A DNA stretch of 64,000 bases from Heptranchias perlo. Its lineage: Eukaryota. Of the stretch, positions 10,991 to 35,389 are shown piece after piece. The stretch lies in the NCBI RefSeq assembly GCF_035084215.1, contig NC_090327.1, positions 113,026,001 to 113,090,000 on the forward strand. The letters run 5' to 3'. The notes under the pieces were generated by a model. It had not been told where the DNA came from. It saw only the letters and a list, made by a program, of their open reading frames with translations, and made no database searches. A program made the position numbers and the translations under genes. How positions within the stretch are numbered: the stretch's first letter is position 1; each line of letters starts with the position of its first letter.

Positions 10991-11122
10991 ATAAAAGCAA
11001 AATATTGCGGATGCTGGAAATCTGAAATGAAAACAGAAAATGCAGGAAATACTCAGAAGGTCAGGCAGCACCTGTGGAGAAAAAAAGAGTTAAGGTTTCA
11101 GGTCGATGACCTTTCGAAAGGT
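10991..11122 (-). mobile_element. Short Penelope-like terminal fragment (family B) with partial hammerhead
   Basis: Homologous to 20318-20414. Ends in the perfect palindrome acctttcgaaaggt (11109-11122). Confidence 0.75.
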
Positions 11123-11213
11123 GAATATTGATAGTTCTTTGCCAATTGATTTGATTCTAGTTAGAATAAATTGATGTTCTATCCTATTCATGTGAAGCTG
11201 ATGTTCAAACAAC

Positions 11214-11981
11214 GGCCCAGAAATTACTCACCTCCAGACGCTGTTTATCAATGACGTCCTCTCTCTCTGCTGGCGAAGACAGGGACCAAGTTCGCGAATG
11301 CACTCATGCGCACTAAAACCCGGAAATCGTGAACTTGCCCCCATTACTTCGCCGGCAGTTTAACAGGTCCGAATTAAAGGGCCACGGCACATTTCAATCA
11401 ATAAAATCATTAAACAATCGTAAACTTACCCATCTGCCCAGCTGGAACAAAGATACTTACGCCACCAAAAGGTATGCTGGAAAGCACCAGCCCTACACTA
11501 CTTTTTAAAAGCGCGATGACTGTTAATGACTGAGAAACAACAAAAAATTAAATTTTAAAAATGTGGAATGTCATATTACTCTTTTTCATTAAAAAAAATT
11601 ATAATTAAAAATTAAAATTTTTTTTTTACTTTTAACTTCTGTAAGTTTCATTAAATTAAATAATTTGCTTGGCTTTTTATTATAAGATATGTTAATTTTT
11701 TATTTAAACTAATGTACAGAAGTTTACTTTAAATGATTGAGTTTTACTTGCCTGCTTGTGGCCGTGACTTCTCTTCTTGACAGATTCTGTGGGCGAGGTT
11801 TCCATTCCCACAGTCTCTATCGATACGAAGAAACCTGCGCTGAAGTCACAGCACTGAACTTAAAAAAAAAATGAAGAGGGAGCAATTGGACACCGGAGAC
11901 CACCAGGTAAGTATTTTAGTCGTGTTTGTCCGCCGGACATGCGGATAGCCTTGCAACGCCAGTCGGAGCAAGTTCTGGCCC
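11214..11981. mobile_element. TIR-bounded non-autonomous DNA element (MITE)
   Basis: Left end ggcccagaaattactc vs reverse complement of right end gggccagaacttgctc (13/16). GC-rich ends, AT-rich middle. Confidence 0.7.
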
Positions 11982-13823
11982 ATTAAATTTGGGGCATTGA
12001 ATGTTTTAGCAATATTTGTTATAGAACCTCGTGATGGATAGCTACTATAAACCAAATCTACCATTTCGTCTAGTGACTCATTTCAATGACTTTTTGACAC
12101 TAGGTAAACAATATCAATCATTTCCTGTTAACAAATCTGAAGTTTATTGACCTGTTTTCAGAAACCTCATGATCTTGCTGACAAAATAGCAACCACACCA
12201 ACCTCTGTCAACATATTAAATAATCCAGTTACTAAACATCAAAATCAGCCACTTGCAAATTTGATTCCACGTACTTGCAAACAGGGAACTTGATTGTGCA
12301 ATGAGGTAGTACACTGTCTTTCCATTTCTCTGACCTATGTCAGATCCACTCCAGATTAATGGAATCACATCTTTCTGTGTTGCCTATAAGGATCTTAAAT
12401 ATCTCCAGTTCCAAGTAGGTACTGGCTCAGCACCAAACTGCCTGAATTTTGTCACATATTAGTGATCTCCCTAAGAACAGTCATAAGAATGTCTGGTGTA
12501 GGAGGATGAAAAATAGGGCTAATCAGATTAGTAATATGACCGTAGCAGATGCCAGTAAAATATTTGAATTTATATTCTTCAATTTACCAATATTTTCATT
12601 GAAACATTTCTTTCTCTAGTTTTTTTTGCAAATTGCCTGGTGTTTATATAAGAGCTGGATCATACTGATATTAGAACTCCTGGCTCTGCTGCAAGCAAAG
12701 CCAGATGAAAAGTACCAATTAACATCAATAAATCTAAATAACTAGATGTATATCAACATCTCATGAAACTAAATGACAATTCCCACCTGTCAACATGCCT
12801 GTTAATGTTTTAGCAAAGTAGATATTTTAGTGACTTATCTACCCATTGCGACATTTTAATAAAAAGTGACATAATACTCCAAAACATTTTGTGTGTGCAT
12901 TCAACAAACACTTTAACATCACCTATATTGAGTTTATTTGCATTCCTTTATTGTACATAGATGTTTCCCTTACCAAAAGTATATATATCCCACTATTAAC
13001 CATGCATTTGCCAATACTGCATCAGTACTTCAATGTATGCTGCTGGTATTTCAGGGTGATGTGGAGATGCCGGTGATGGACTGGGGTTGACAATTGTAAA
13101 CAATTTTACAACACCAAGTTATAGTCCAGCAATTTTATTTTAAATTCACAAGCTTTCGGAGATTTTCTCCTTCCTCAGGCAAATGTTTCAAGAGCTCCTT
13201 GAAGCCTACGCATTTATACATATTGAACAATACATGGTGTTTACAGACTGCCCCTGCAACTGCCCGTTGCCAAGGCAATCACCGTGTTCAGACAGAGAGG
13301 TGTCACCTGCAGAACCCCCGAATACACATTCAACAAAAAAACAAACAGGGAAAAAAAACAGAGAAAAAAAACACAGAGAGAGGCAGAAACATCCGGAAGG
13401 CAGAGAGAGCCAGCAAATGACCCATTATATTAAAAACAGATAACATTTGTTCGCTGGTGGGGTAACGTGTAGCGTGACATGAACCCAAGATCCCGGTTGA
13501 GGCCGTCCTCATGGGTGCGGAACTTGGCTATCAATTTCTGCTCGACGATTTTGCGTTGTCGTGTGTCTCGAAGGCCGCCTTGGAGTACGCTTACCCGAAG
13601 GTCGGTGGATGAATGTCCATGACTGCTGAAGTGTTCCCCGACTGGGAGGGAACCCTCCTGTTTGGCGATTGTTGCACGGTGTCCGTTCATCCGTTGTCGC
13701 AGCGTCTGCATGGTCTCGCCAATGTACCATGCTCTGGGGCATCCTTTCCTGCAACGTATGAGGTGGACAACGTTGGCCGAGTCACAGGAGTATGAACCAT
13801 GCACCTGGTGGGTGGTGATATGA

Positions 13824-14588
13824 TATGACGCTCGACTCATCGATCGACAGTTCCGACGGGCCACAGCAAAAAATCGCATAGACCTCCTCAGGAGACTAAC
13901 ACGGGACGCAACCAACAGAGTACCCTTTGTCGTCCAGTACTTCCCCGGAGCGGAGAAACTACGCCATGTTCTCCGCAGCCTTCAACATGTCATCAATGAG
14001 GACAAACACCTCGCTATGGCCATCCCCACACCTCCACTACTCGCCTTTAAACAGCCACCCAACCTCAAACAGACCATCGTTCGCAGCAAACTACCTAGCT
14101 TTCAAGAGAACAGCGTCCACGACGCCACACAACCCTGCCACGGTAACCTCTGCAAGACATGCCAGATCATCGACACAGATACCACCATCACACGAGAGGA
14201 CACCACCCACCAGGTGCATGGTTCATACTCCTGTGACTCGGCCAACGTTGTCTACCTCATACGTTGCAGGAAAGGATGCCCCAGAGCATGGTACATTGGC
14301 GAGACCATGCAGACGCTGCGACAACGGATGAACGGACACCGCGCAACAATCGCCAAACAGGAGGGTTCCCTCCCAGTCGGGGAACACTTCAGCAGTCATG
14401 GACATTCATCCACCGACCTTCGGGTAAGCGTACTCCAAGGCGGCCTTCGAGACACACGACAACGCAAAATCGTCGAGCAGAAATTGATAGCCAAGTTCCG
14501 CACCCATGAGGACGGCCTCAACCGGGATCTTGGGTTCATGTCACGCTACACGTTACCCCACCAGCGAACAAATGTTATCTGTTTTTAA
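13824..14588 (+). CDS. C-terminal part of Penelope ORF (linker, Cys-rich motif, GIY-YIG endonuclease), 5'-truncated but open
   Basis: YDARLI...PFVVQY...AFKQPPNLKQTIVRSKL...CHGNLCKTC...NVVYLIRC...WYIGET...LRQRMNGH...HF...E...I...GLN. Confidence 0.88.
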   Translation, partial: YDARLIDRQFRRATAKNRIDLLRRLTRDATNRVPFVVQYFPGAEKLRHVLRSLQHVINEDKHLAMAIPTPPLLAFKQPPNLKQTIVRSKLPSFQENSVHDATQPCHGNLCKTCQIIDTDTTITREDTTHQVHGSYSCDSANVVYLIRCRKGCPRAWYIGETMQTLRQRMNGHRATIAKQEGSLPVGEHFSSHGHSSTDLRVSVLQGGLRDTRQRKIVEQKLIAKFRTHEDGLNRDLGFMSRYTLPHQRTNVICF

Positions 14589-14833
14589 TATAATGGGTCA
14601 TTTGCTGGCTCTCTCTGCCTTCCGGATGTTTCTGCCTCTCTCTGTGTTTTTTTTCTCTGTTTTTTTTCCCTGTTTGTTTTTTTGTTGAATGTGTATTCGG
14701 GGGTTCTGCAGGTGACACCTCTCTGTCTGAACACGGTGATTGCCTTGGCAACGGGCAGTTGCAGGGGCAGTCTGTAAACACCATGTATTGTTCAATATGT
14801 ATAAATGCGTAGGCTTCAAGGAGCTCTTGAAAC

Positions 14834-14874
14834 ATTTGCCTGAGGAAGGAGAAAATCTCCGAAAGCTTGTGAAT
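14834..14874 (+). ncRNA. Minimal type-I hammerhead ribozyme motif (mirror copy on - at 13144-13184)
   Basis: atttgc-CTGAGGA-a-ggaga aaa tctcc-GAAA-gctt-gtgaat: both core boxes, 5-bp helix II, palindromic AGCT helix III, 6-bp helix I with two G-U pairs. Confidence 0.75.
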
Positions 14875-15639
14875 TTAAAATAAAATTGCTGGACTATAAC
14901 TTGGTGTTGTAAAATTGTTTACAAGTATTTCAGGGTGTAATTTATCAGGGTCACTGCTTTAATTTGAATGATGATGACAGCAAATTGTGTTGTCTTCTCC
15001 TCAGAATTTCCCTTTGAATTTTTTCCTTTTAAACCCTCCTGAAGGTGATGACTTATTTTAGGGTGAGATTCCATGGTTGACAGCAGCCACTTGGTAGCAT
15101 GTCCAAGTGGTTATTCTTCATGTGTGAACCTGGACTATGAAACCTGGCCCTTACAACTAAACGTGATCTCATCCGGTGTCCACAAATCGCAAACAGAAGT
15201 GAGAATCCTAACAATTTTCCCGACCTAATTACCTGAAAAGAAATCACTTGCACCAAACCCATGGCAAAATAAAACAATGCATCTAAGCATTCCGATGACA
15301 AGGCCCCTTGAGGTAGATTTTTTAGCTTGCCGCCCGGGCATAAAGATGACGTTGTGAATCAGTCACTCGTTATAGAAACCACCCAATTTTCACTGAACTA
15401 ATTTATGTTGCATAAAACTGAGAAAATTTAAATGTAAAGTTTAACATGCAGAAGATGTTCTAGAAAGTGTACTCCTTGTTGATACAGTCAATATCCACCA
15501 TTGCAATTTTTTTAAAGAATTGAATGGGCATGGTATTGAGATTTATTTATTTTTACTTATTGAGAATGCAAGATGAATGGCCAAGGCTTATAGTGGAAGT
15601 TTAAAAGAATAAAAAGGAAGATGAGACATATTGGGATGT

Positions 15640-16340
15640 GGTGATTAGCTGATGCTAAAATTGCATTTTAAAACTCCTTCAGTTTGTAGAAGGAAGGGAA
15701 AACTCAGGGAAGTTAAGGGTTCCACAACTTTGAAGTCATGCGAAGGAATGTGTCAGAATAAGAGACTGAGATAAATCCTGATTTCAATACAGTGAGGATG
15801 TAGAGAGGAGCTGTAGCATGTAGGATAGTATAGTTATGAACTTAGAAGGAGCAAGAGATGGAAGTTTGGATGAGCAATGAGCATAATAGTATTAAGAAAT
15901 TTGAAAGACAAGAAAGATTGCAACAGAGGGAGAGGTTGGAGGCTATTGACAAGAGAGGAATTGCTGATCAGACGACAAGCTTTTTCTTGTATCCTATGCA
16001 AGACTGAGAGAAAGGTGCTAGATATGAGAACAGTGTTGAAATCTTGAATGAACTTAGGCTTTATAAAGAGTTAAGAGTTGTTGAAAGGAAGAGAAGTGTT
16101 TGGCACAAAAGAAGAAACTATGATTCTCAAGGAATTTGGGAGCTTCTTTTGAGATCAGAGGAGATAGTGAGGCCAAGTACATTGACAGATGAAGAAAAGT
16201 AAGGGTGAAGCCATTAAAGGTAAGAGTTGGTATTTAGTTGGCATTGCAAGAGACATGAAAGAACTATCTTTGAAGAACTGAAAGGAACAAGGTTTTCATT
16301 TCAAAGAATTTTGAAGGGCACGAAAGGAACAAGGCTATTT
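15640..16340 (-). mobile_element. Highly decayed non-LTR retrotransposon 3' end
   Basis: Minus strand reads roughly F..TSKLWN...P.VFPSFYKLKEF, a LINE ORF2 C-terminal pattern. Confidence 0.5.
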
Positions 16341-16562
16341 TAAAATTACTTTTATCAATACTCATCAATGTAATGTGCGCCTAAATTGTAGTATAACCCT
16401 AGCAGATAACGGTCCATTTTCTAATGGAACTTTTTATTACATTATGGGGGTGAAATTAAAGTCAGTGGAGAAGAATATCAGGCAGGGTGTAAAACGGGCC
16501 ACTGATTCGTTATCACCCGTTTTGTGTTACTGGCAAAGACCAATTTCACTCCGGTTACATAT

Positions 16563-17349
16563 TGGCCCGTAAATTGCTCCGAGCAGTGCTCGCTGCCCAT
16601 TAGATTTCAATTCACCCACTAAGTTACCGTGTTCTTTTTGACGGCAACTTCCTTGAACTGTGAGTTGAAATAACATCAGCGTTCTTTCCCGGGCTGTGTG
16701 AGTGGTGAAAGGGTCTCTCAGGCCCCTCAACCAATCAGCTTGAAGCAAGCCACACTGCGAGAACCAGGAAGTGCAGTTCATAGACAAACCACGCATACTA
16801 AAAACCCGGATGTGCCCGATAAGGTATTATAAAATGACATAGAGAAAGCGAAATAAAGAGAGGAGAAATAAAGAGACTAAAGTAAGAGAGACAGAAGGAA
16901 AAAGTAGAAATAAATTTTTAAACGTTTTTAATTTAAAAGTTTTTTTTAAATGTCCAAAAACTATTAAAATCAGATTTAATGAGACTCCACGTTTTTAAGA
17001 GTTAATATTTAGTGTCAGTGAGGGTGTTTGGCAGTGATTAAGGTTTACCATGCTTTAAAGCTTAGTTTAGACTTAAAAAACTGAGCGTACCTGTTTTGTG
17101 GCGATATTAGTTAGTTTCCAGCTGGGCACGAGAGGAAGTTGGTGCTGTTCCGTTGATTCTATTGATTGCAGCTGGTGAAGTCCCTTTAAGGCGAAGCTGT
17201 CAGATCACCGGCGAACCAGGAAGAGCAAGTTCCGTATTTCCGCGTTTGACTGCGCATGAGCGGTCGCCGGAATTTGCTTTACGATTTCGCCACTAATAAT
17301 GGTGAGCGCTGTTGGGCTCACCGTTAATTTGAAAACAATTTCCAGCCCA
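16563..17349. mobile_element. TIR-bounded MITE, abutting or inserted in a smaller repeat (16446-16560)
   Basis: Ends tggcccgtaaattg and caatttccagccca. Related to 22090-22811 in the opposite orientation. Confidence 0.7.
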
Positions 17350-19257
17350 ATATATCAAACACTACTAAGTCTCAGAAGATGTTTGAATAACCTAAGGTTA
17401 TTGCCATATCTTTTCCTTTACCCCTATACTACCCTTTTCAGTCATGGTGGTGTCTTGGATTATGGACCTTGACTTGTCACCTAGATTTCTCAATTAAACA
17501 AATACTACTGCTTTTATTTTCCACAAATAGAGTTGTATACATGCAAAATATTAATAGGAGTACTTACATGCCAATTATTATTGAAGCTGCATATATCCAG
17601 GAACTTCTTCCTGTCATTGAATCACTGTACCTAAGCAGTGTGTTTACTTTGGATATTGATCCAGTTTCATTAACTATCGCACATTCAGTAGAAAAAAGAG
17701 CTGGTGGAGGTGACCCATGAGGTGCAGTTTTGTAGAAAGAGAGCGTGTGTTAGACTTTTGAATCCAAATCAAATGAGTTGACCCAATTTGAATTCATGGA
17801 GAAAATTAAATTTTTTCCCCTCAATTAAAAAAATTAAGGTTCTGTGTTTTTGAAATGTGTCAGTGTCCTTTTAGAGTAATGCCCCATCATGATTTAGAGG
17901 CCTCTGCTGTCAAGGCTTGGGAAGGAGCCCTATGAAATCGACATTTCAAATGGATAGGACGGATGGACCAATAGGGTGGACAGATTGTCACAGAGTTGGA
18001 TGGATTTCTACTGTCCACCATTTGTAGCATAATCATAAACCAGTTCTATAAGTTCTGCATTTACGAATTTGCTACGAACAGCTAATACGGTCAGGCTTCC
18101 CCTTTAATAACTCTTCCTTATGTGTGCATATCGATAAATATTAATGTGCCATTTCTTGTTTACTGATTACAGATTTTACTGAGAAACATTTCATGAGTGG
18201 TGTCTTATTTCTAATGTACTTTTAAAAAAAAAACACTGGCCTGGTTTTAGCAGCTCTTTATTGAAGAACCAGTTGAAGGAGGGATAAGTGTGTATTTATG
18301 TTCATTAGTCGTGCAAAATTTGTTCAGCGTCTGTACTGATGTGATGGCTGCAGTGGGAGGAATAAAACCTCCTGTAAAGATCAACAGAAAATGGATGTCA
18401 GGTCACAATGTTAATAGGAAATGGAAGTCTGGTTAAATGTTAAGGGTTCAGGCTGTTGCCTAGAGCTGAGCAGAGTATAAAGGAGCTGTGGAGAAAGGCT
18501 TTCTACAGTATTGCATTCCCCATAAATATGGATGGTTACCATATAAGAATAGTAAATACATTTGACTGGCTACTCAAGTGTGAATGTGTTTGAACCATTC
18601 ATTTCAGTGGTCTCTTCTCATGCCTTTGTGTTTTTCTGGACTTTGATTCCTTCACAGTTTTTGGGCAATTTCAACTCCAATTCACAATTTCTATTGAACG
18701 GTCAAACCAGCACCCCTTAAAACCACAGGACTTCCTGTGTGCACCGGGCAATTTTACCTAAAAACTATCGTACAACTGGACAGTGTACAAACTGCCATTT
18801 GGAGTCAGTGGAGGTAGTTTTGTGCAATAGAAGTCAATGGAAATAAAAATTGGGAGAGATGTAAAACGGGCTGCTGATTTGCTATCACCCGTTTTACACT
18901 TGCCCAAAATCAAAATTACCCCCGGTGTCTCTTAGATGATATGATCACTCATTAGTTGGCAGCTGTGAATTGTACATAGTCTGAAAAGGTGCTGTTTTTT
19001 AGGATAAAGTAACTGTGAATAATATCCAGGTGTGAAGCAGACGATATTTATTATTTAACAAAATGCACTGTAATTGCGATGTTTCAATTTTTTAGTCTAT
19101 GTTTATTTTTTGACAATAGACAGGAAAATAGCTGAAGCTGCACAAGAGCCTCTTGGTAAACAACTGAAGCAGATCTAACTCAAAGGAGCACAGTTTTATC
19201 CTTGTTACTAAGTAACTGTTCATTACGGTACACGTGTATACGCACACTTCACTCAAA

Positions 19258-19357
19258 TAAGAACAAAGAATGCTAAAAATACACAGCAAGCGCATCAGCA
19301 TCTGAAAAGAGAAAAGAAGGGTTAACATTTGAGTGTAGACCTTTCATTGAACGGAAC
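19258..19357 (-). mobile_element. Decayed Penelope-like terminal fragment
   Basis: aatgct.aaaata...cagcatctg...gttaacattt...gacctttc pattern shared with family B copies. Confidence 0.55.
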
Positions 19358-19440
19358 ATATAACAGAAATTGGCCACGTGATCATGTGCAAATGCTCTGC
19401 ACTCCCATCTTTACAAATTGGATGTACTAAAAATAATTAC

Positions 19441-19594
19441 AAAAGCAAAATACGACGGATGCTAGAAATCTGAAATAAAAACAGAAAATGCTGGAAACAA
19501 TCGGCAAGTCAATCAGCTGTGATGACCCGAAACATTAACTCTGTTGCTCTCTCCACGGATGCTGAGCGTTTCCAGCATTTTCTATTTTTATTTT
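19441..19594. mobile_element. Miniature inverted Penelope-like insertion (family B)
   Basis: aaataaaaacagaaaatgctggaaac ... gtttccagcattttctatttttattt. Flanked by imperfect TSD aaaaa(t/c)aattac at 19429-19440 and 19595-19606. Confidence 0.75.
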
Positions 19595-20314
19595 AAAAAC
19601 AATTACAAATAAGACTTTTGTCAAAAGGGACTTAATGGTGGCTTAGAAGTCATCTACATATGTGTATAGTTAAAATGAAAAGTTATAGTAAAAAGTAAAC
19701 CAAATACTTGCCAACTTATTAACATCATTGCCAAGTCCTGTGAAGTTAGACTTGAACATCTCACCTGGAGTATTCCATCAAACCCTGCATTCAGGTCAAA
19801 TAGAACAAGTTTCATTTGGGAGAAACTAGATGACTGCATCTGATAATCTGATGATACAAGGCTAGAAATACAAAAGAGGAAAAGTTGCTCTGGTTCCATA
19901 TGTAGCAAATTATAAATGCATTGAAAAAGAATATGAATAGATGTTCTTACACAAAGAACAAGAGCAATTGTCCTTCCAAAGAGAGTGAAGATATCATCAT
20001 GCTCGACTGTGATTGTTAAGTGTCACAGATAGGTTTTGAATTAGCTTGGAGAAAGGATGAAATGAATAAAAAACAAGATGTTCAGAAAGTAGTAAAACAG
20101 ATGGAACAACTACGTGGAATAATCTTCACACCAATTCTGGATAGCAGACCTTGAGGGTGCAAGTGTATTTTGCAAATGGTTAAATGGAACTAACAAACAA
20201 GGGGTGACGAGATGATCACTAGAGATAGCCACAATTATTGTATGTAGAGTGGAGTCATTATTAGAGCCTATCGCAGAGATAAGTGTTTCTCATCACAAAA
20301 CTCAGAAAGTCTCT

Positions 20315-21832
20315 AATATAAAAACAGAAAATGCTGCAGAAGCTCAGCAAGTCAGGCAGCATCTGTGGAAAAAGCAACAGAGTTAATGTTTCAGGTCGAT
20401 GATCTTTCGTCAGAAATGGAAAATGTTTTTGAGCAAGTACAGAGCCAGGCAAAGTGGGGGGTGAGGGAGGGGAGGGGAGGAAAGAACAAAAGGGAAGGTC
20501 TGTGATACGGTAGAGGGCAGGACTGATTAAATGACAAAAGGGATGATGGTGCAAGGCAAGGAAGATGGTAATGGGACAGGTTAAGAAACAAAAGATTAAT
20601 CAGGAGTAACTGTAAATGGCAACACCAGGGCCATTACCAGCACTTGCTGATGAAAAAATGGGAGCAGTGGTTATGATCTGAAGTTATTGAAATCAATGTT
20701 GAATCCAGACGGATGTAAAGTGCCTAAACGAAAGATGAGGTGATGTTCCTCAAGCTCACGTTGAGCTTCATTGGAACAGAGTAAGTGGCCGAGGACAGAG
20801 AGGTCAGAGTGGGAGTGGGACGGGGAATTAAAATGGCAAGTGACCAACAGGTCAAGGTCACACTTGCGGACTGAGCGGAGATGTTCAGCAAAGCGATCAC
20901 CCAATCTGCGTTTGGTCTCCCCAATGTAGAGGAGACCACACTGCGAGCAGCGAATACAGTTTACTAAATTGAAAGAAGTACAAGTAAATCACTGTTTCAC
21001 CTGGAAGGAGTGTTTGGGGCCCTGGACGGTGAGAAGGGAGGAGGTGAAGGGGCAGTTGTTGCATCTCCTGAGCTCGCATGGGAAGGTGCCGTGGAGTGGA
21101 GAGCAGGTGATGAAGAGTGGACTAGGGTGTTGCCGAAGGAGTAGTTCCTTCGGAATGCTGAAAGGGGAGGGGACCATGTGTTTGGTGGTGGGATCGCTCT
21201 GGAGGTGGTGGAAATGGCGGAGGATAATACATTGAATGTGGAGGCTGGTGGGGTAGAAAGTGAGGACAAGGGGGCCCCTATTGTGGTTCTGGGAGAGAAG
21301 GGAAGTTTAAGGGCAGAAGTGCAGGAAATAGGACGGACACGGTCGAGGACCCTGTCAACTACAGTAGAGGGGAATCAGTAGAGCAGAAAGGAAGACATAT
21401 CGGAAGCACTGGTATGTCAGAACAGATGCGACAGAGACAGAGAAACTGGGAGAAGAGAATAGAAGCCTTACAAGAAGTGGGAGGAAGTGTAATCAAGGTA
21501 GCTGTGGGAGTTGGTGGGCTTATAATAGATATTGGTTGACAGCCTATCCCCAGAAATGGAGACAGAGAAGTCGAGGAAGGAAAGGGAAGAGTCGGAGATG
21601 GACCATGAGAAGGTGAGGGAAAAGTGGAAATTGGAAGCAAAGTTGATGACATTTTCTAGTTCGGGGCGAGAGCAGGAAACTGCACCAATACAGTCATCAA
21701 TGTACCAAAAAAAGAGGTGAGGGAGGGGACTTGAGTAGGATTGGAACAAGGAATGTTCCATGTATCCCGCAAAAAGGCAGGCATAGCTGGGACCAATATG
21801 GGTTCCCATAGCGACACCTTTTATTTGGAGGA
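20315..21832 (-). mobile_element. Penelope-like retroelement (family B), 5'-truncated and decayed (RT plus GIY-YIG)
   Basis: RT motifs GVAMGTHIGPSYACLF, WYIDDCIG, SFLD, YKPTNSHSYL. Endonuclease motifs DRFAEHLRS, HF, E.HLIFRLGTL.PSGFN. TSD agaaagtctct at 20304-20314 and 21833-21843. Hammerhead motif at ~20381-20415. Confidence 0.92.
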
Positions 21833-22089
21833 AGAAAGTCTCTGACGTTTCAGCTATTTACTTCACAGTTCAGCTACTTCAGGCATGAAAGTTTCACTTT
21901 GAATAAACTGGAATCATTCCAGTATGCTGTGAACTGCATCGCAGTGAGGCATAATCTGATTCAGTCTGATTAACACCAAGACCACAACATCACTCTGCAT
22001 TATAGCTTCCTCTGTACAGTTACCCTTTTTGTAAAATTAGTTCTAGTTTCTGCTGAATTCTTCAGCTAAGGAACTGCATTAAAGTATGC

Positions 22090-22811
22090 AGTTGCTGGAA
22101 AAATGATGGCGAGTTCACTGCGCCCGCCATTATTAGTGCGTAAAAAACCCAGCAATTTGTGGCAAGGAAGAGCTATGTCATGAGTTGTGAGTCGCCCCAA
22201 ATTGCTGGACAATTTGCGCCGCTCCGCCATTAACTCAGTGTCATTCCCTCCCCCCCGGCGACGAGTGTCAAGAAATTGCTGGATTTCCGCCATGAATATG
22301 AATGAATCTCACTGCAGACATTTAAGGCTGATATTTCATGTCATAAGGACCCTGTTAATGATGTGATTTATGGTCCTGACATGACACTCAACTTTGGAGG
22401 CCTAGGAAGGGAATCTCACTCCTGCGGGCAGTAAATTGTTTCTAGAGTTTTTTTTAATTTTAAAATTTAAATTTTTTTCTTACTTTTCCTTTCTGTCCCT
22501 TTTCTCTCTCTTTCATAATCCAATCTTTCTTTCCCTCTCTTTATTTCTCTTTCTGTATCTAATTTGACTCTAATTTACCTTATTTGCTTCTCCGTCATTC
22601 GCTCTTGTCTCTTTCTTGTTCTTTAAATTTCATTGGTTATGGAGATAAACCTTTGGACCCGATGTTAATGAGGTCCCAGATGTCCTGTTAATGTCACTGC
22701 ACTAGTATCATTTTGCACTTCCAACAATTTGTGACACAAAAATAATACAATCTGAAGGGTGAGAAAAAAATCCAATTCACGGTGCTCACTGTTCCAGCAA
22801 TTTCTGGGCCA
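22090..22811. mobile_element. MITE related to 16563-17349
   Basis: Shares cgcc(a)ttattagtg and (tc)-rich blocks. Right end gcaatttctgggcc. Confidence 0.6.
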
Positions 22812-23383
22812 TTATATCTGAGAATGTTGTATCTTTCAGTATCAGTGATATATGTAATATTTTTATCTCAGGCAGTTATGTGATATATTGCTTCAGTAAA
22901 TTTGCTGTATTACAACGATGGATGAATCATTGTCATGTTTAGGCTTCAGTAGAACCATGGTAAACAGAAGAAATGCACTCCTGCTCCTGGACTACCCACG
23001 AGCAACGCCATAGAAGGTCTACTAGTCTTCCTGAAAAACGAGCGCAAAACAATTTTCCTTTGGCGGAAGTTACCCAGCTTTTCTATCTCTATCCCCTTCT
23101 CTAACAAAAAAAGTATCCCTTTTCACAAAGAAAGTATCCCTTTAATAAGATTTTCAGAAGAAAATGCTTTGGGGGTGGGTTTGTGCCCACAATTTTCCAT
23201 GTGAACCCAAATATCTCTCATAGCACCGTTGGGAAATGCTAAGCAAAAGCTGCATCTAAAGGGAGCAAAAAATGGTGGTATAGGTCTTACACACCTCCTG
23301 CCATTGGTTTCACCGCAGCATTGGCAGAGATCTGCTTGCCTAGTTTTGCTGCTGGCCACAATCAGTCATGAGATTTCATATCT

Positions 23384-24144
23384 TGGCCCCGACTTTAATG
23401 GGGGGATGGGCCCGGTATGGTGCAAACGAGCCCCAAAGCGGGCGGCAGGTGCGGGGAATCCGGAGACGTGGATCTTAACGGCTGGGCCTCATTTACATAA
23501 ATTTTCCTGGAGTCCCTGCTGAACCCCGCCAAATCCACTACTTGGCTGGCGGGTGGGAGCAGGAATTTGGCGGCAGGAGGCCACAGCCGGGGACCCATGG
23601 GAATGGTCCCCGGCAGCCAAAATGGGGTGGGCCTGGAGGCAATGGGAGGAGGGGGTTCTAGCTGCGATTGGAGGGGAGGTTCCAGCTGTGATCGGTGATC
23701 GGGGGGTGGGGTAGGGGGGGGCAGTGCTGTGGCCATGATCGGGCAAGAGAGGCCCAAGGCTTCCTTGTGAGGCCTAGCGGAGCATTCCTCCTTCTCCTAG
23801 CCCACAAGGAAACCTAAAATAATGCTTTAAAATTTACCTTGCTGGTCCTCTTCTGGCTCATGATCCCTTTGGTTTGGCCTGATGGGGAAGCTGTCACTGC
23901 TCCCCTGCTCAGGCCTTCAACTAAAATTGTAGATTGGATCCTGATGACATCATTGGACCCGATCTACATATTTGTAAAGAAGGATCCTGCTGACTTCCTG
24001 CGGGGGTCCCGCTGACCTGCTCAAAAGAGCAGGTTAAGATCAGAAAGGCAGCGGGATCAGGGTGGATGGTAAGTGACTGGCCTTATTTTAACTGCCTCTC
24101 CGCCTAGTTTCCGCCAGGCGGGTCCAGTTCAAAATCGGCGCCCC
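23384..24144. mobile_element. Harbinger-like MITE
   Basis: Ends ggccccgacttt and aaaatcggcgcccc; GC-rich. Confidence 0.7.
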
Positions 24145-24299
24145 TGTCTCCCCCAGCCTCAAAACATGATAATGCTTTGGAATATACATTGCCATTGTAT
24201 TCTCTGGTAACCAACTGCATACTGTGCCTTAACTAGATCTGTCTAGTCTTGATATCGCACCTGTGCCATAATGTTGCACACATGACTCTAGAGCAACAG

Positions 24300-25440
24300 T
24301 AGGATGTTTTTAAAAAAGAGATTGCAAAGGTACACAATGATTATATTCCATTAAAAAAGGAAACTACTAGTAGTTTTACTATACCATAAATAAATAAGTT
24401 AGAAAACAGTTAAAATTGAAATAGTCTTTATGTAAACTAGAATAATAAGAATTAAAAAACTGAAGGAGAATATGAGAAAATAAGTGTAAGAGCAGGATAC
24501 GGAAAGCTAGATATCAAAAGCAACAGTATTTTACAAGTTTATCAGTAGAAAGATAATTGTTAAAAGCAAAGTGTGACCTCTGAGAGGAGAGGATTATCAA
24601 TTTGTAGATGATCATCAAAAAATGGCAGAATTAATAAATACTTCGCATTGGTCTATACTAAAGAGACGGATATTAAAGAGGAGTTAAATCCTGAACTGGT
24701 TGAGAGCAAAATGAGTGATGGTATGATGGATCAAAGAAAATTTTACACGAGTTAGGTTAGCTAAAAGAAGACAAAGTGCCCAAAACAATGCCCCTCGGAG
24801 TCTTAGTAGACTTGACATGCAACATGTCCAGCCAATGAGATCAGCAATGAACAAAGACAATGGAACATTGAACTACATAGCCAAAGGAAGTTTTGAAGAA
24901 ACTCTGGTCAGACTACACCTGGAGTACTATGTCCATTCCTGGTTACCGAGATGTAAAGGAGACCAGTGCTGCAGGCAATGTAGACAAGAGCCACAAGACT
25001 GATTCCCAGTCTTAGAGGTCTCACTAATGAGGAAAAACTGGAGAAACTTGGACTTCTCAATCTTGATAGAGGCATCTGAGAGGTAATCTTATAAAGGTAT
25101 ATAAGATACTATATGGTGTGGAAGAGGGAAATCCGGAAAATTACTTCAAATTAAATTGTGAGAGTAAGACAATGGCCACAGGTTCAAACTAGTTGAAGAC
25201 AAATTTAGGATTGATGTCATGAAGTTTTACTTCACACAAAAAGTGATCAACACTTGGAATGGACTCCCAGATAAAGTAGTGAAGACGAAAACCCTGGAAT
25301 CTTTTAAAAGGGAAGTGAATAAACATTGAAATGGTGCAGTGAAAGAGCAGGGGCATAGGACAAAGTGGGTAGCTCTTTCAAAGAGCAGGCACAGGTGCGA
25401 TGGGTCGAATTGCTTCCTCTGAGCTGTAAAATTCTATGTT
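24300..25440 (+). mobile_element. Decayed, internally deleted CR1 LINE
   Basis: LVRLHLEYYVHSW motif, FTQKVINTWNGLP-like segment, CR1-type 3' UTR. Confidence 0.75.
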
Positions 25441-26009
25441 CATGTGATTACGAGCACAGTTAGAAAGATGGGGAAGACTGTCATATTGACAGATGGTGTT
25501 ACATCCCAAAACAATTTAATAATTGCCCGTCAGTGAATTGGCTATTGACTGTTGATTCAGCCAGTTACCCAGTGAAAATCAGAATATCCCACTGCACAAG
25601 TACTGCTTTTGGCAAGCATTTGCAATTACACACTTTCAAGTCTAAAAGGTTTTGTGTTTGATAACTCTCCCTTTTACAGGAAATGGAGATTACAGCCCAC
25701 CCTGCATTGCCTTGCCAAACATAAAAAGCATGAAATATTTTTGTTTTGTAGCTCTTGTCTCTGGAGTAACGTATATGCTGTAACCTTTAGACTCGTATTT
25801 GGTCAGGGAGTCGGCCAGTGGCATGTTAATGAGGCCGGGCCGTTAAAATCGTCCGGGCCTCCCACTGCTGCTCCTCGATGGGCCGGCTGCTCGCTAGACT
25901 GTTTTCCCATCAGTACTGTGTCAGTAAGAGGAGGAGTGTGCAGTGACATGATGAGCGATAGATCGCTGGGCCACTGATTGGGGTGGGGTCTGCTGCTAAA
26001 AAGAACAGT

Positions 26010-26335
26010 TCTCTTTTCCTTTGCTCCACCATGAAGGCACTGACTCTTGCTGGCGAACGGGTCCACAGGCACGGTAGCCCTCCAATATCTCACGCATTCT
26101 TTATGCGTGAGTCCAGTCTTTGAGTGTTGGACGGTTATTTGAACAGAGAGGGAATCACATTTGAGTTTGATTCTGTCTTCCTCACCCAATATCCGCACAC
26201 ATTCATTTTGCAGCAGGAGTCACCAGTTGACAATCAAGAATGGGAACCTTGGCTGATTTTTCCTCTCCTTGACCAGGAGCTCTGAAGCCAATTTTAGTGT
26301 CCCATGTGTGGCTTGGCCAAGATCAGCTAACTCAA
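26010..26335 (-). mobile_element. Ancient SINE (AmnSINE2-like)
   Basis: Reverse complement tgagttagctgatcttggcc...aaaaatcagccaaggttccc...gtgagga.acagaatc matches 60770-61250 and the recalled consensus. Confidence 0.6.
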
Positions 26336-26416
26336 TTTGTAACAAACTAATAGTTTTCCTGTGGCATTGCTCATAGTAAGTTAGAGGATACAGTTATACA
26401 GGATACAGTGGAGCTA

Positions 26417-26435
26417 CATCGCCACCTAGTGGCCA
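26417..26435 (-). promoter_or_regulatory. Candidate CTCF site
   Basis: Minus strand TGGCCACTAGGTGGCGATG closely fits the CTCF core (tgg)CCACYAGGKGGCR. Motif match only. Confidence 0.45.
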
Positions 26436-26544
26436 CAACCTACAACAACAGCATTGGTGAGACATGTTTACATAAGGAATTCCTATGGTAACTGATCAAT
26501 AGGTAGTTTCAATGTTAAATTTTTTTTGATATTCATTTTTCAGA

Positions 26545-26810
26545 TTCGGGCGTCGCTGGCAAGGCCACATTTACTGCCATTTCCTAGTTGCATTGAGAAA
26601 GTGGTACTGGCTTTCTTGACCCACTGCAGTCCGTGTGGTGAAGGTGCTTCCATAATGCTGTTAGGTAGGGAGTTCCAGGATTTTGACCCAGCAATGATGA
26701 AGGAATGGAAATATATGTCGAAGTCAGGACAGTGTATGACTTGGAGGGCAACTTGGATGTGATGGTGTTCCCTTGCACATGGTGCCCTTGTTCTTCTGGG
26801 TGGTAGAGCA
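26545..26810 (-). mobile_element. LINE 3' fragment, same family as 34048-34521 and 43815-44246 (more diverged)
   Basis: SFIIAGSKSWNSLPNS peptide. Confidence 0.8.
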
Positions 26811-27737
26811 CCCATTTCGAGGTGCGCCAGAAGAAACTGACAGTAGGCCTTGAAAGTGCCCCCCCCCCCCAACCCCGCCTCAGATTGGAGGATCTGAGGG
26901 GGCTGGCAGCAAGGTAAGGGAGGCCGAAAAGCTGAGTAAAATATATTTTTTTGCAAGCTCCTCAAGGATCTTTGGGCCTGGACAGCAGCCAAAGAGCACC
27001 AAAGCCAGTGGCCATTCTAGAGGTCCCAGATACCAGTTTCCTGTAATGAATTGATCACTCTATGGGAAACTGGCCTTTTAAAATTTAAATCCCTCCATCC
27101 CAAGGTCCTTAGCTATGCTAGATGCCAGGAACTCATGGGTGTATCTAGTGCCATCTTTGCTAAGGTGCTGTTAGGCAATGGATGTTCTTACTTATAAATT
27201 TATAAGTTACTCCATAAGATAATAGGATTCAAAGGCATTTATTGGCTTTCATAGGAATTAAGTATACAATGATAACCATTTGTACTAATAACTATACATA
27301 TACAATGATAACTATTACTAATAATAATTACACATATACTCAAGGTCACAATTACAATTCAGGGCCATGCTTTCTCTGAGACTTGCTAAATCAGCAGAAT
27401 AAACATTTTTGGGCAACTAACAGTCTTTCTGCTGTGCTTTTGGAACAAGCTGTTTCTGCTTTGCCAGGGACTGTACATGAAAGCTGCACAGTGAGAAATT
27501 GCCATCTCATGAATGGTAAAATATTCTGTAATACAGATTGCATGCAGAATTTCTCTGAGATCTACATACTTTATGGTAATGACAATACTGCACTAATGCT
27601 CTCACAAAGGAGGTTAATACCACTTTATATTATGAGACTCCAGAACACTTCCAACAAAAGCAAGGAAAAGACAAGGTGATTTCTTACTTAAAATGTAATC
27701 CATATAAAATAACAGATATTGAGACTTGTTGGATATA

Positions 27738-27852
27738 GGGTTGAATTTTCCCGGGCTTCTCCCACTCTGCTGCTGTAACATGAACAGACTTTTACATGTG
27801 TAAATGGGGTGTCTGCTGAATATCTGCTCAAATTACAGTGGAAATTCAGCCC
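27738..27852. mobile_element. Very short MITE (relatives near 7375, 32355, 60938, 62275)
   Basis: TIRs gggttgaattt and aaattcagccc; shared ttctcc..tct.c..c..taac core. Confidence 0.55.
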
Positions 27853-28508
27853 ATAGTCTTTGTGGTCAGAGGAAGTTCATAAACTATTCTAACTTCCATT
27901 TCAAAGTTGCTCACATCCCTTGAACGCTTCAATTATGTCACAGCCCTGAGTTCACTGGCAGTCTGCCATAATTAGTTTTTGTTTGTAATATTATTAAATA
28001 TATTACTTCTCTTCAGAAATGCAATCTTATATCTATCGCAGAACAGAAAACGAAATCTAACATCACACCCTGTAAAATCAATGAAGTGCAAAAAGTGTTA
28101 ACACTGACAGATTGCATGTTTCTTGAAGGCTGGGCGATGTTAACTTGCCAGTTGGTGTTCTGATTTTTTTTGCCCTTTTAGAAGCAAGACGAGCTGCATT
28201 GTGAATGGAGTGATTTTTTTTGTATTAGAAAAAGATTGTTACTTGTAAAGGAAATCCATAATGAAAGCATCACTGTGTTATGAACTATGCTTTTTTCACC
28301 TTTTCCATGATTCCTGATTATTAAGATAGTTAAAAATCTTTTAAAATCACAAATGTTGAAAGGAAGAACTAAAAGCAGCTATTTTTCCTGGCAACATTTA
28401 TATACTCCACCATTAACAGTCTTGGAAGGTCTAAATTGGAGCCTACAGCACTACATTTAAGCCATCAAATTGCAAATCTCGGCTCCTAGAGGTCAGTGCA
28501 TCTGATTC

Positions 28509-28725
28509 ATGTAAAGAGACGCACAACACCCGGTTATAGTCCAACAGCTTTATTTGAAATCACAAGCTTTCGGAGCTTTGCTCCTTCGTCACTTCACCTG
28601 ACGAAGGAGCAAAGCTCCGAAAGCTTGTGATTTCAAATAAAGCTGTTGGACTATAACCGGGTGTTGTGCGTCTCTTTACATTTGTCCACCCAAGTCCATC
28701 ACTGGCATCTCCACATCATGGCCAC
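28509..28725. mobile_element. Penelope-like fold-back: perfect 83-bp hairpin plus 3' tail
   Basis: Arms 28509-28591 and 28599-28681, 7-nt loop. TSD catctgattcatg at 28499-28511 and 28726-28738. Confidence 0.92.
28594..28632 (+). ncRNA. Minimal hammerhead ribozyme motif
   Basis: tcac-CTGACGA-a-ggagc aaa gctcc-GAAA-gctt-gtga. Confidence 0.75.
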
Positions 28726-30259
28726 CATCTGATTCATGGCACTCCCAATTTTCTAATCATGAAACTCATGCTGAAATCAGACTCAATTCAGATCAACATA
28801 ACATTGTCAAAATCCAAATTGTTTAAACATAACTAAGGTAGAGAAAGGCTGCCTGCCATAGAACTGTGCAAGTGTGAGTATGAGTTGGTCTGTGTTAAAT
28901 GTTACAGCTTACCTATTTGCACTGTTGTGGGTCATTGAGTGTCTAAATATTTTTAATCATAAAGTGCAGCACCTTTTGTCAAATGAGGAAGACTGTATTG
29001 TGAGGGTATTTTATGAGGGCATTCTCCCCAATTGTATTCAGTTGCTGATTCCACCCCTCCTCGTCCCAGCCATATGCTTCCTGTGTCCTAGATGTTAGAA
29101 CAGATGGTATGCTTCCAGGACACCCCCAATATTGCTCCTAACCATCCATAGGGTGGGGGATGCAAGAGTACCCAGATTTCACCTCATCAGTATTCCTTGC
29201 CCCCTCCCCCCCCCGAGATGCTTTACCTTCTCTCAGCACCTCCCTCCTCAGCTTGAATCAAATTTGCTTTGTACCCACTCCCATTTTGTGATCATTTTCT
29301 TTGTATGCAACATGTTCTATTTTTTCATTCCCTTTATATCCTGGCTGCTTTCCTGTACATATCCCAGTGACAAAAATGCCAAAGAGAATACAGGAGCAAT
29401 GATACTGTTTCCACACTTACCTTGCATGTTTATAATGTACTGTGTGTCTTTCACTTTGATCATGTTCTCATTGTTTCACTTCTTTACCTTTTTGTTTCTC
29501 TTTTCAATCTTTCTGCTTTTCTCATTTCTCCCTGCTGTGGTTTCTTTCCTTTCTGTCTCCTTCTCTCTTACCTCCTTTTTATCCTAAGCTGCTCCTCTAT
29601 TAGTTTTTATCTTTGCTTTTTCCCCTTCTCGTGCTGTTACTCATTGAGATAACTTGCCATTCATGAGTAGCTGCCTAAGTACTCTGAGAAAATTAGCTAT
29701 TGCAGTTTCTCTGAGAATCTTGGCAGTCATTTTAGAAATGTGCTGCCTAAGACAATTTTGTAGAAATAGCCATTCCTGATGTAGATAGATGGTCTCATGG
29801 AATCTAGGAATCCCTGCACAAAATGGGGACATCCTACATTAGATTCTCTAGCTTGCTACATTTTAAATACCTATCAGTAACTCTTGGGCACAATGTTATA
29901 ATTTCTCCGATTTGCAACACTGAAAATTGAATGTAGTTTTCCTCTAAATTATGACTACACTACATGCTAAAGGCATTACCATCTGATCCAATTAAGATGA
30001 GGTGTTATTTTCCAGTTGTAATGTGAAAAAGGTTCCTCACATTTCTGCCTGTCTAGTGCATAAACTGGCCAGATAGCGTACCCAAGAGTGACAAACTTAA
30101 ATACCTTTGGTCCAGATTTTCCTGGGGGCGTGCGCCATTAACACCTACATCACAAAAGAAAGAGGAAATTATGGAGTCGGTGACTTGTGCCATCACTTAT
30201 GGTGCTCCATATTTTCCTGTGGCTTTGGTGCCACTCTGTGCCCTGTGTCAATAACAGTT

Positions 30260-30407
30260 ATGATGTGGAGATGCCGGTGATGGACTGGGGTTGACAATTG
30301 TAAACAATTTTACAACACTTACCTGAGGAAGGAGGAAGTCTCCGAAAGCTTGTGAATTTAAAATAAAATTGCTGGACTATAACTTGGTGTTGTAAAATTG
30401 TTTACAA
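30260..30407. mobile_element. 148-bp inverted Penelope-like insertion (family A) with hammerhead motif at 30319-30355
   Basis: 21-bp inverted arms 30298-30318 and 30387-30407. TSD tcaataacagtt at 30248-30259 and 30408-30419. Near-identical to the termini of 13059-14924. Confidence 0.92.
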
Positions 30408-31449
30408 TCAATAACAGTTGGAAGCTAATTTTCAAAGCTCCGAGCTTCCACTGAAAACAATGACAATCGTGATTTTGCTGTATTATCGCCATTTCTCATG
30501 TTGCTGCAACTTAGACTTAAAAATAATGATGCTGGTGGCTTGGCAGCGGCGTGTTTTATAGCTAATATTTTTTTAATCGCTCAAAGGATTGAACTTGGGC
30601 CAGTCTGAGGCTGAAGAAAGGGCTCAGCACACCCGTGGAAGCTCAGTACTCAAATTCATGACATGCTTTAAACAGAAGGAGACCAACCAATTCTATCGAA
30701 AAAAGATAGTACCCAAGGTCTCTTTTAATATCTCAGTTGCCAAATTCTATCTAACCCATGGGCTATTTTTGCTTTCAATATTCATTACGATATATTTCTC
30801 TAAAGTGAACTTTATTTGCTGCTGATCATTTGAGCTGAAAGCCCTGTCGGGCTACCTTTGTAATATCTTGGCTGCCTCCTCTGATTCCAAAGTCCCTCAA
30901 CGTGGTGATGACTTCTGCAGTTTCTCTTTAACCCATTCACGCATCATCACCCAGTGTGTTCCTATCTTAAAATGTACACATGTTAGCATGCATTCAGTGA
31001 TCAGGAAATATTGACCAGGTTTTCACTTTGTGTGTGATTATGTGCTTACCACCATCAAAAAATAGTCACTGCTTTTGCTGCAGCCATCTTGCCCTCCTCT
31101 CAGTCAGCTAGTCAGCATGCAAGCAACATTTATTGATGTTTAAAGGGAGAGTGAGGAACATCAAATCTAATAGTGAAGTTGGACTGGATGAACAGACTTT
31201 AAATATTTCTTTAAACCTGTCCCCCGTTTCCCTGATTAATATGTTCTCCCTCCACATTTTTTGTCAATTGTACAGTGCAAAATAGTTTTACTAAATGGGA
31301 GTCAGGAACCAGTTGAAAAAGATTTACTACACATTGGATAGTCAAAGTTCAAATGTTCTAAATGATTTGTGCTTTTTGTTTTTCCTTTTTGGTACAACAA
31401 CTGTAATTCCCCCACCCCCCACACCCCAACATTCTGTTTTCAGCAGATA

Positions 31450-34047: not shown

Positions 34048-34521
34048 TTTTTTTTCATTCGTTCATGGGATGTGGGCGTCGCTGGCGAGGTCAGCATTTA
34101 TTGCCTATCCCTAATTGCCCTTGAGAAGGTGGTGGTCAGCCGCCTTCTTGAACTGCTGCAGTCTGTGTGGTGGGGAGTTCCAGGATTTTGACCCAGCGAT
34201 GAAGAAGGAACGGCGATATATTTCCAAGTTGGGATGGTGTGTGACTTGGAGGGGAATGTGCAGGTGGTGTTGTTCCCATGTGCCTGCTGCTCTTGTCCTT
34301 CTAGGTGGTAGAGGTCGCGGGTTTGGGAGGTGCTGTCGAAGAAGCCTTGGTGAGTTGCTGCAGTGCATCCTGTGGATGGTACACACTGCAGCCACTGTGC
34401 GCCGGTGGTGAAGGGAGTGAATGTTTAGGGTGGTGGATGGGGTGCCAATCAAGCGGGCTGCTTTGTCCTGGATGGTGTCGAGCTTCTTGAATGTTGTTGG
34501 AGCTGCACTCATCCAGGCAAT
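34048..34521 (-). mobile_element. LINE 3' end with A-tail (clade uncertain)
   Basis: KLDTIQDKAARLIG...HSLHHRRTVAA...SKSWNS...FKK peptide; A-rich tail. Confidence 0.85.
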
Positions 34522-34602
34522 TTTCAGCTTCACTATTGGTGTGTCACCTAATAATTTACTTCAGCAAAAAAAGAATTATTGAATGCAAGTAAAATAAAAG
34601 CA

Positions 34603-35389
34603 ACAGATGGAGTTCAATGTGGGAAAGTGTGAGGCCATCCACCTTGGACCTAAGAAAGATAGATCAGAGGATTTTCTAAATGGTGAGAAGCTAGGAACTG
34701 TGGAGGAGCAGAGAAATTTAGGAGTCCAAGTACAAGAATAACTAAAAGCTAGTGGACAGGTACACAAAATAATTTAAAAAGCCAATGGAATGTTGGCCTT
34801 TATCTCAAGGGGACTGGAATACAAAGGGGTGGATGTTATGTTACAGTTATATAAAGCTCTGGTTAGACCACATCTGAAGTATCGCGTTCAGTTCTGGGAA
34901 CCGCACCTCAGGAAGGATCTTTCGGCCTTGGAGGGGGTGCAGCGCAGATTCACCAGAATGATACTGGAGCTAAAAGGGTTAAATTATGAGGACAGATTGC
35001 ATAGACTCGGCTTGTATCCCCTTGAATATAGAAGATTATGGGGTGATCTGATTGAGGTGTTTAAGATGATTAAAGGATTTGATAGGGTAGATAAAGAGAA
35101 ACTATTTCCTCTGGTGGGAGAGTCTAGAACAAGGGGGCATAACCTTAAAATTAGAGCTAGGCAGTTCAGGGGTGATGTCAGGAAGCACTTCTTCACACAA
35201 AGGGTAGTGGAAATCTGGAACTCTCTCCCCCAAAAAGCTGTTGAGGCTGGGAGTCGATTGAAAATTTCAAAACTGAGATTGATAGATTTTTGTTAGGCGG
35301 GTAGATGGAGTTAAGATAGAGACCGGACATGATCTAATTGAATGGCGAAACTGGCTCAAGGGGCTGAATGGCTTACTCCTGTTCCTATG
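34603..35389 (+). mobile_element. CR1 LINE 3' end
   Basis: LYKALVRPHL...QFW.PH...LEGVQRRFTRMI...RTRGH...FFTQRVVEIWNSLP. Confidence 0.93.

Follow-up and report, generated by a model that had tools for sequence, protein, structure and literature searches.

How does a retroelement insertion come to hold two inverted copies of its own terminus, with a tail on only one of them? The question is raised by a window of 64,000 nt (the whole stretch analysed; G000:C3:113026001-113090000) in the 3.25-Gb genome of Heptranchias perlo, in which five inverted-arm items had been described as a graded series of fold-back insertions sharing one architecture. We found that four of the five are genuine, truncated fold-back insertions flanked by target-site duplications (TSDs), from two families (A and B) of Neptune-type Penelope-like retroelements (PLEs). 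Such insertions probably form when both target strands prime on one element RNA, each at its own site, and reverse transcription often runs off the 5' end of that RNA.

The fold-back insertions in the window

The largest of the four belongs to family A, in which we number the last base of the terminal tttaca as 0 and the tail from +1 onward. It occupies 13059-14924, between 13-bp TSD copies at 13046-13058 and 14925-14937. On its left, a 35-nt tail (+2 to +36; 13059-13093, minus strand) is followed by the tailed inverted arm (13094-13817, minus strand), which reaches -722 of the reference unit; the longer, tail-less arm (13822-14924, plus strand) spans -1101 to +1. Over the shared 724 nt (13094-13817 and 14201-14924), the arms are identical at 722 positions. 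The tail-less arm contains an open frame (13824-14588, plus strand) covering the end of a reverse transcriptase (RT), a CX4CxxC linker and a GIY-YIG endonuclease. A TATA-box motif at 14800-14809 (plus strand), a putative promoter element, is conserved in all family A subfamilies read. An RNA start is predicted at about 14830, 30 nt downstream of this motif, and a minimal hammerhead-like motif (CUGAnGA, stem II, GAAA, stem I) lies at 14835-14875 (plus strand), with a counterpart in the mirror arm.

The other three are shorter. At 30248-30419, a second family A fold-back has a left-hand tail, 12-bp TSDs and an exact arm of 22 nt; its tailed arm (30260-30318, minus strand) extends to -19 and overlaps by 5 nt at the junction with the tail-less arm (30314-30407, plus strand), which begins at -92, that is, 30 nt downstream of the TATA box (TATA+30). 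The fold-back at 28499-28738 represents a rarer family A relative, so that the window holds two family A subfamilies, one with the insertions at 13059 and 30260 and one with that at 28509. Its tail-less arm (28509-28591, minus strand) and right-hand tailed arm (28599-28725, plus strand) are identical at 83 of 83 positions within a 13-bp TSD. The genome holds just two copies of its terminal 30-mer, one in each of its own arms. The family B fold-back at 19428-19609 is old: the tailed arm on the left (19440-19522, minus strand) and the tail-less arm (19523-19594, plus strand) share 16 nt exactly plus a further 9 nt (about 27 nt with mismatches, over 19441-19594), and the 16-nt TSD has one mismatch.

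When 10991-30420 was shuffled 20 times, perfect inverted repeats with copies no more than 400 nt apart reached at most 10-14 nt; arms of 83 and 724 nt are far above chance. In agreement with the original prediction, each of the four insertions, read with its TSD (13, 12, 13 and 16 bp), carries the tail on one arm only, and the tail-less arm ends at tttaca(a) in family A and at ttttattt in family B. The arm lengths put forward (724, 83, about 27 nt and 21 nt, the last being in fact 22) also hold for these four, as does the derivation of both ends from 3'-terminal element sequence. The fifth item, a 7-bp zero-loop hairpin at 11109-11122, was rejected as a two-terminus fold-back: it has no TSD, is not a 3' terminus and repeats the 7 nt that close the inner side of a tailed family B copy (10993-11122, minus strand). 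Zero-loop hairpins of this size number four in the segment, against 0-4 in 10 shuffles. The siting of this one exactly at the inner end of the copy suggests a small snap-back.

Ends, pairs and arms in genome samples

The pairing counts below were made on genome samples. For family A, the sample comprised the window, the surroundings of the first 100 core matches on C1 and two sets of 70 anchors, drawn from 120 tail-less and 907 tailed ones. A TSD was resolved in 181 rows (129 two-terminus, 51 one-terminus and one unparsed), which left 78 anchors without one. Of the 129 two-terminus insertions, 127 have a tail at one end and not at the other, and a full tail at both ends was never seen; removing two local duplicates and two nested cases left 123 fold-backs for further comparison. 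Every inverted pair read by hand among the 78 anchors without an automatic TSD was likewise tailed plus tail-less. From the 51 one-terminus rows, 11 were dropped as repetitive loci and eight by hand (six tailed/tail-less fold-backs with divergent or trimmed partners, one tail-less/tail-less pair and one misparsed row), which left 32 plain, non-inverted copies, 21 tail-less and 11 tailed. All 32 have TSDs, which indicates that either start site can act alone and, from the tail-less copies, that the near site (the one at the tail-less end) is a priming site by itself.

The family A terminal 33-mer has 60,228 exact matches in the genome, and 28,157 of these cores continue exactly through +17, so that the genome-wide share of tailed ends is at least 47%. 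All 41 fold-backs reached via their tailed end have a tail-less partner, for which the chance is 0.53^41, or about 5e-12. In family B, 23 of 26 head-to-head neighbours are tailed plus tail-less (three of them reclassified by hand from the TSD), one is tailed plus partly tailed and two could not be assigned. The family B profile was trained on 18 of the first 30 loci; in 40 independent loci, 10 of 11 pairs were tailed/tail-less. Tailed/tail-less pairs thus dominate, as the original prediction required, and no full tailed/tailed pair was found in either family. In one further arrangement (L188:960-1330), two stubs, one tail-less and one tailed, point the same way with 200 nt between them, and their 12-nt flanks are mutually reverse complementary; it looks like a fold-back event that inverted flanking DNA.

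End positions were bimodal rather than scattered, so that neither outcome named as refuting the original prediction was observed in these samples. The tail-less end overlaps -3 to +4 in 113 of the 123 fold-backs and the tailed end +34 to +44 in 121, so that the two start points once proposed as fixed are better described as two narrow windows. The proposed two-endpoint rule is also looser than stated, given the 32 plain copies and eight of 123 tail-less arms that begin at -10 or further in (by 10-60 nt). Family B profile matches (129) end chiefly at model positions 207-213 and 237-240. Exact TSDs measure 12 bp in 52 of 105 cases and 13 bp in 36. Microhomology with the target, averaged without the ends that had been searched for, is 1.7 nt at 78 tail-less ends and 2.0 nt at 76 tailed ends, compared with 0.4 nt in controls. 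The three bases following the tail-less end are most often A, T and T (57, 44 and 44 of 65).

Comparison of the arms points to one template per insertion. Both arms were long enough in 89 of the 123 pairs, and in 59 of these no difference was found over 70 nt. On average, the two arms of a pair differ by 0.52 nt per 70, compared with 3.7 for arms from separate insertions, and none of 10,000 permutations of the 89 pairs fell below 3.0. The stem II variant is the same in both arms of 62 of 73 pairs, against 23% by chance. Arm lengths also go together, with 30 pairs both long, 91 both short and only two mixed (Fisher p 2e-26). The tail-less arm reaches further 5' in 59 pairs and the tailed arm in 36, with 28 ties; since either arm may reach further, neither simply copies the other. 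At the inner junction, 43 of the 91 short copies show an overlap of 1-7 nt and 19 a filler of 7-43 nt.

A fold-back with a 13-bp TSD on C2 (L136:585-1545, G000:C2:163426811-163427756) shows the same sharing beyond the element. Both of its arms leave the element at -101, the predicted RNA start, and enter the same nearby DNA from the same base, continuing for 275 nt and, in the longer tail-less arm, 438 nt with 99.8-100% identity. A transcript from a distant source copy was rejected as the origin of the shared sequence, which is local DNA 0.6-1.1 kb upstream, taken from one base inside a repeat of about 720 bp that looks like a long terminal repeat (LTR). Template jumping is a known property of non-LTR enzymes, and we read L136 as a case in which both cDNAs jumped to one free 3' end. 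Three other short tailed/tail-less fold-backs with TSDs (L134, L166 and L210) enclose 85-170 nt of unrelated sequence between their arms, possibly through capture of other RNA or DNA after run-off.

The 5' ends of short arms cluster relative to the TATA box. The motif TATAAATGCG is common to the family A subfamilies read, and among 203 short family A 5' ends, 69 lie at TATA+28 to +33, compared with nine at +22 to +27 and 33 at +34 to +39; the sharp stop falls at TATA+29 to +32. The peak lies at -93 in the subfamily group with a short spacer and at -99/-100 in the long-spacer group. Because it moves with the spacer, the peak is tied to the TATA box rather than to the terminus or the hammerhead. 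A fixed boundary at -84 was discarded as partly an artefact of using a single-subfamily reference. In one subfamily, the number of matches to nested exact patterns drops from 6,249 to 2,114 across the 9 nt that contain the predicted start; another 9 nt bring it to 1,469. Family B behaves alike, with a modal start at model position 106 (TATA+29), and at +29 both family B and one family A subfamily have what we take to be an initiator-like sequence. Two further tail-less family B stubs in the window (19252-19352 and 56101-56208) start at model positions 107 and 104, near TATA+29. There is also a hint of clustering at the predicted hammerhead cut (14 of 33 5' ends at -57 to -45, p 0.011), in a window picked post hoc and in AT-rich palindromic sequence.

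Probable priming by both target strands and its alternatives

In the mechanism that we favour, which would account for all the counts above, a staggered cut at the landing site would allow both strands to prime reverse transcription on one element RNA. One strand would start at the near site and yield the tail-less end, and the other about 37 nt further 3', yielding the tailed end. The primers would pair with the RNA over 1-3 nt, and the same site on one RNA could presumably not be started twice, so that the second primer would take the other site. If the near site were used before the far one, with strand displacement, this would account both for the tendency of tail-less arms to reach further and for the absence of tailed/tailed pairs. 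If the copy of the start sites near the RNA 5' end is used, both cDNAs would run off after about 90-140 nt and give stubs of 130-290 bp; if a downstream copy in a tandem read-through RNA is used, both arms would be long. The two free cDNA ends may then be joined head to head by microhomology or filler end joining, and extension of one primer only would produce a plain tailed or tail-less copy. In this scheme, the stubs are dead products and not a self-copying family.

Of the two mechanisms between which the original prediction had left the choice, double priming and a template switch by one cDNA, the switch is the poorer fit: in 59 of 95 asymmetric cases it is the tail-less arm that is longer. 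This count, which includes the insertions at 13059 and 30260 as well as L136, also speaks against snap-back and makes it unlikely. There, a single cDNA that began at the tailed site would turn back at its 3' end and serve as its own template as far as the tail boundary, where it is stopped or cut, and later deletions in the middle of the palindrome would make either arm the longer one. Such snap-back, which is close to the self-priming and endonuclease-resolution ideas of PMC3846280 and PMC8557442, would account for the single template, the joint short or long state and the shared continuation in L136 without further assumptions. Many junctions are near-perfect palindromes, near symmetry is seen in five of the 30 long pairs, and the small hairpin at 11109 (7 bp) resembles a short product of this kind. 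However, self-copying predicts a tail-less arm that is a subset of the tailed one and needs an extra step, central deletion, wherever it is longer; plain tail-less copies with TSDs show that the near site primes by itself, and the 7-43-nt fillers at 19 of 91 short junctions suit the joining of two free ends.

Two primers might instead use two RNAs, held by a protein dimer in which each subunit is biased to one start site, with the arms made alike by a small number of active source loci or by later gene conversion. A dimer is predicted for the related Poseidon protein (PMC11167929), the stem II variant differs in 11 of 73 pairs, with some differences matching other common variants, and the arms at 28509 are identical though no other insertion in the genome has their variant, an outcome that conversion would likewise produce. 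We nevertheless regard this explanation as improbable, since only two of 123 pairs mix a short with a long arm, where about 46 would be expected if the arms were independent, and the switch of both L136 arms to the same base is left unexplained. Least credible of all, and hardly to be entertained, is a non-autonomous family that copies itself as a hairpin unit in the manner of a miniature inverted-repeat transposable element (MITE) or a retrozyme. The short fold-backs are indeed abundant, similar in size (about 200-250 bp) and furnished with hammerhead-like motifs on both strands, but their inner junctions vary from copy to copy, with overlap or filler differing among the 91 short copies, and identical junctions occur only within one locally duplicated region. 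Moreover, arm lengths are continuous up to 3 kb, and arm sequences vary in step with the many subfamilies of the autonomous element.

Several observations weigh against priming of one RNA by both target strands, or against parts of it. The evidence for the priming order is a single p value of 0.023, and in vitro the choice of start site by Poseidon was not seen to be strand-specific (PMC11167929). Pairing has exceptions: the remaining two of the 129 two-terminus insertions join a tail-less end to a partial tail (+11 to +17; C1 4.52 Mb and L141), L221 is a tail-less/tail-less pair, and in family B L266 pairs a tailed with a partly tailed end, without a TSD. Long arm lengths are uncorrelated overall (Spearman 0.12, p 0.53), yet five of 30 long pairs agree within 30 nt (p 0.007), as a hairpin would also give. 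The 3-kb loci under-represent long insertions. Later gene conversion, or central deletion within palindromes, could mimic arm identity and asymmetry. As for run-off, the RNA start at about TATA+30 is predicted from motif readings, TATA+28 is overshot by 20 of the 203 short ends, which stop further upstream, another peak of short ends stands near +40, and run-off junctions show no excess of an extra cap-derived G (8 of 49). The Penelope promoter of D. virilis is described as TATA-less (PMC2377424).

The two families, their relatives and what the counts imply

In an intact tandem array, the family A unit measures 3,081 bp and has a 902-aa open frame from an ATG at +38, so that the tail, which runs up to this start codon, closes the 5' leader. 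For one subfamily, 643 sequence matches extend into this frame. An array of such units with an intact frame (G000:C1:4460966-4473500; L031 and L032) is a candidate young source locus, and nine tail-frame junction matches with a 404-bp period form a short tandem array of pseudo-LTR (pLTR) plus frame start at G000:C2:21273029-21276302. Pfam RVT_1 matches family A above cut-off (E 3e-10), and GIY-YIG matches the family A fragment in the window below it (E 0.001, 19.8 bits against 22.6). Family B is tied to PLEs by a plain, non-inverted tail-less insertion of about 1.5 kb (20315-21832, minus strand; 20304-21843 with its 11-bp TSD), which lies within the span of the proposed series but was not noted there and which retains decayed coding sequence for RT, the CX4CxxC linker and GIY-YIG. 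At four loci, matches to a decayed RT or endonuclease precede a family B terminus. Other dispersed repeats in the window, with copies in both orientations, are at 34048-35393, 43813-44751, 55621-56591 and 62502-63467, and 11210-12000 and 16440-17350 hold elements that resemble each other, about 800-900 bp long and richer in GC apart from their AT-rich centres; they apparently represent another dispersed family.

The elements have the layout of endonuclease-containing (EN+) PLEs, a single frame with RT followed by a C-terminal GIY-YIG endonuclease, and further EN+ traits, namely tandem or partial-tandem units forming pLTRs, inverted copies, a 30-40-bp tail and a TSD. Two cysteines stand between the GIY and YIG halves (YLIRCRKGCPRAWYIG in family A, CIRCSQCGLLYIG in family B), as in the cysteine part of the CCHH motif defined as an EN+ feature in PMC8557442. 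The linker between RT and endonuclease reads CHGNLCKTC in family A and CELRRCNNC in family B. According to the same paper, a CX2-5CxxC linker is found in Neptune and Nematis and is absent from Penelope/Poseidon. We therefore rejected the Penelope/Poseidon clade and, by the linker motif, class both families as Neptune-type, a label that here covers Neptune or Nematis. The putative hammerhead core and stems were read by eye and folded in the pLTR; Rfam gave no hammerhead match.

The architecture is of a known kind. An inverted copy with a tail often at one end only, with self-priming as a proposal, is described in PMC3846280 and PMC8557442, and a one-sided tail and two reverse-transcription start sites are already published (PMC8557442, PMC11167929). 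Pen2a_Av of Adineta vaga (PMC3846280; PMC8557442 Fig. 2) is likewise an EN+ PLE with inverted pLTRs and a one-sided tail. In those papers the one-sidedness is a tendency, for which self-priming or resolution by the endonuclease is held responsible. Here, in contrast, the tail rule is counted (no full tailed/tailed pair) and tied to one template, and most copies are stubs of about 100 nt ending at TATA+30. The closest biochemical parallel is the Poseidon element PAc of Anolis, which in vitro cuts and extends both target strands, uses two internal start sites bounding the tail, and prefers an AT-rich target with ATT, like the bases after the tail-less end here (PMC11167929). Its start sites adjoin the start of the frame and a hammerhead, as do ours next to their putative one, although they lie 111-118 nt inside the frame, whereas here the tail ends at the start codon, and PAc is of the Poseidon clade while families A and B are Neptune-type. 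Since two start sites were thus shown in vitro, the endpoint half of the original idea is already in print. End pairing, inverted products and run-off at the RNA 5' end are left untreated in the text of that paper, and its text supplements make no mention of a tail, of inverted products or of initiation.

In L1 twin priming, the opposite target strand primes second on the same RNA and produces a 5' inversion within the TSD; the second primer uses variable internal sites, and the two segments do not overlap. In the present insertions both starts are fixed, no more than 40 nt apart, and the segments overlap as an inverted repeat. With overlapping arms and a tail-less end at -3 to +4 in 113 of 123 fold-backs, twin priming of the L1 type was rejected.

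The quantitative rules appear not to be in print. We found no publication on exclusive pairing, origin of both arms from one RNA or run-off stubs, in a search that did not extend to subscription papers, the PLE surveys of 2005-2006 among them, and so is no proof of absence. PMC8557442 lists the origin of the inverted repeats and the tail of PLEs as an open problem, and in PMC11167929 whatever follows first-strand synthesis is left unvalidated. With the present counts, the two-site rule reaches beyond a Poseidon element and takes in two Neptune-type families. They also give three predictions for in vitro work: different start sites on opposite strands, one RNA for both arms, and run-off stubs from 5'-proximal initiation. 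The counts bear on annotation too, as tens of thousands of such hairpins in the genome are confusable with microRNA precursors or MITEs; Rfam miRNA models match 28539-28651, below their thresholds.

More tentatively, PLE integration in general may be a programmed two-primer reaction on one RNA, with two exclusive start sites used in a fixed order. Because initiation is internal, its commonest product would be a pair of strong-stop-like run-off cDNAs, able to jump together to a free 3' end. If this is true, a single mechanism would give rise to inverted pLTRs, to tails on one side, to stubs and to the capture of local DNA, and the RNA start of each family could be located from its stubs, with no more than the genome sequence.

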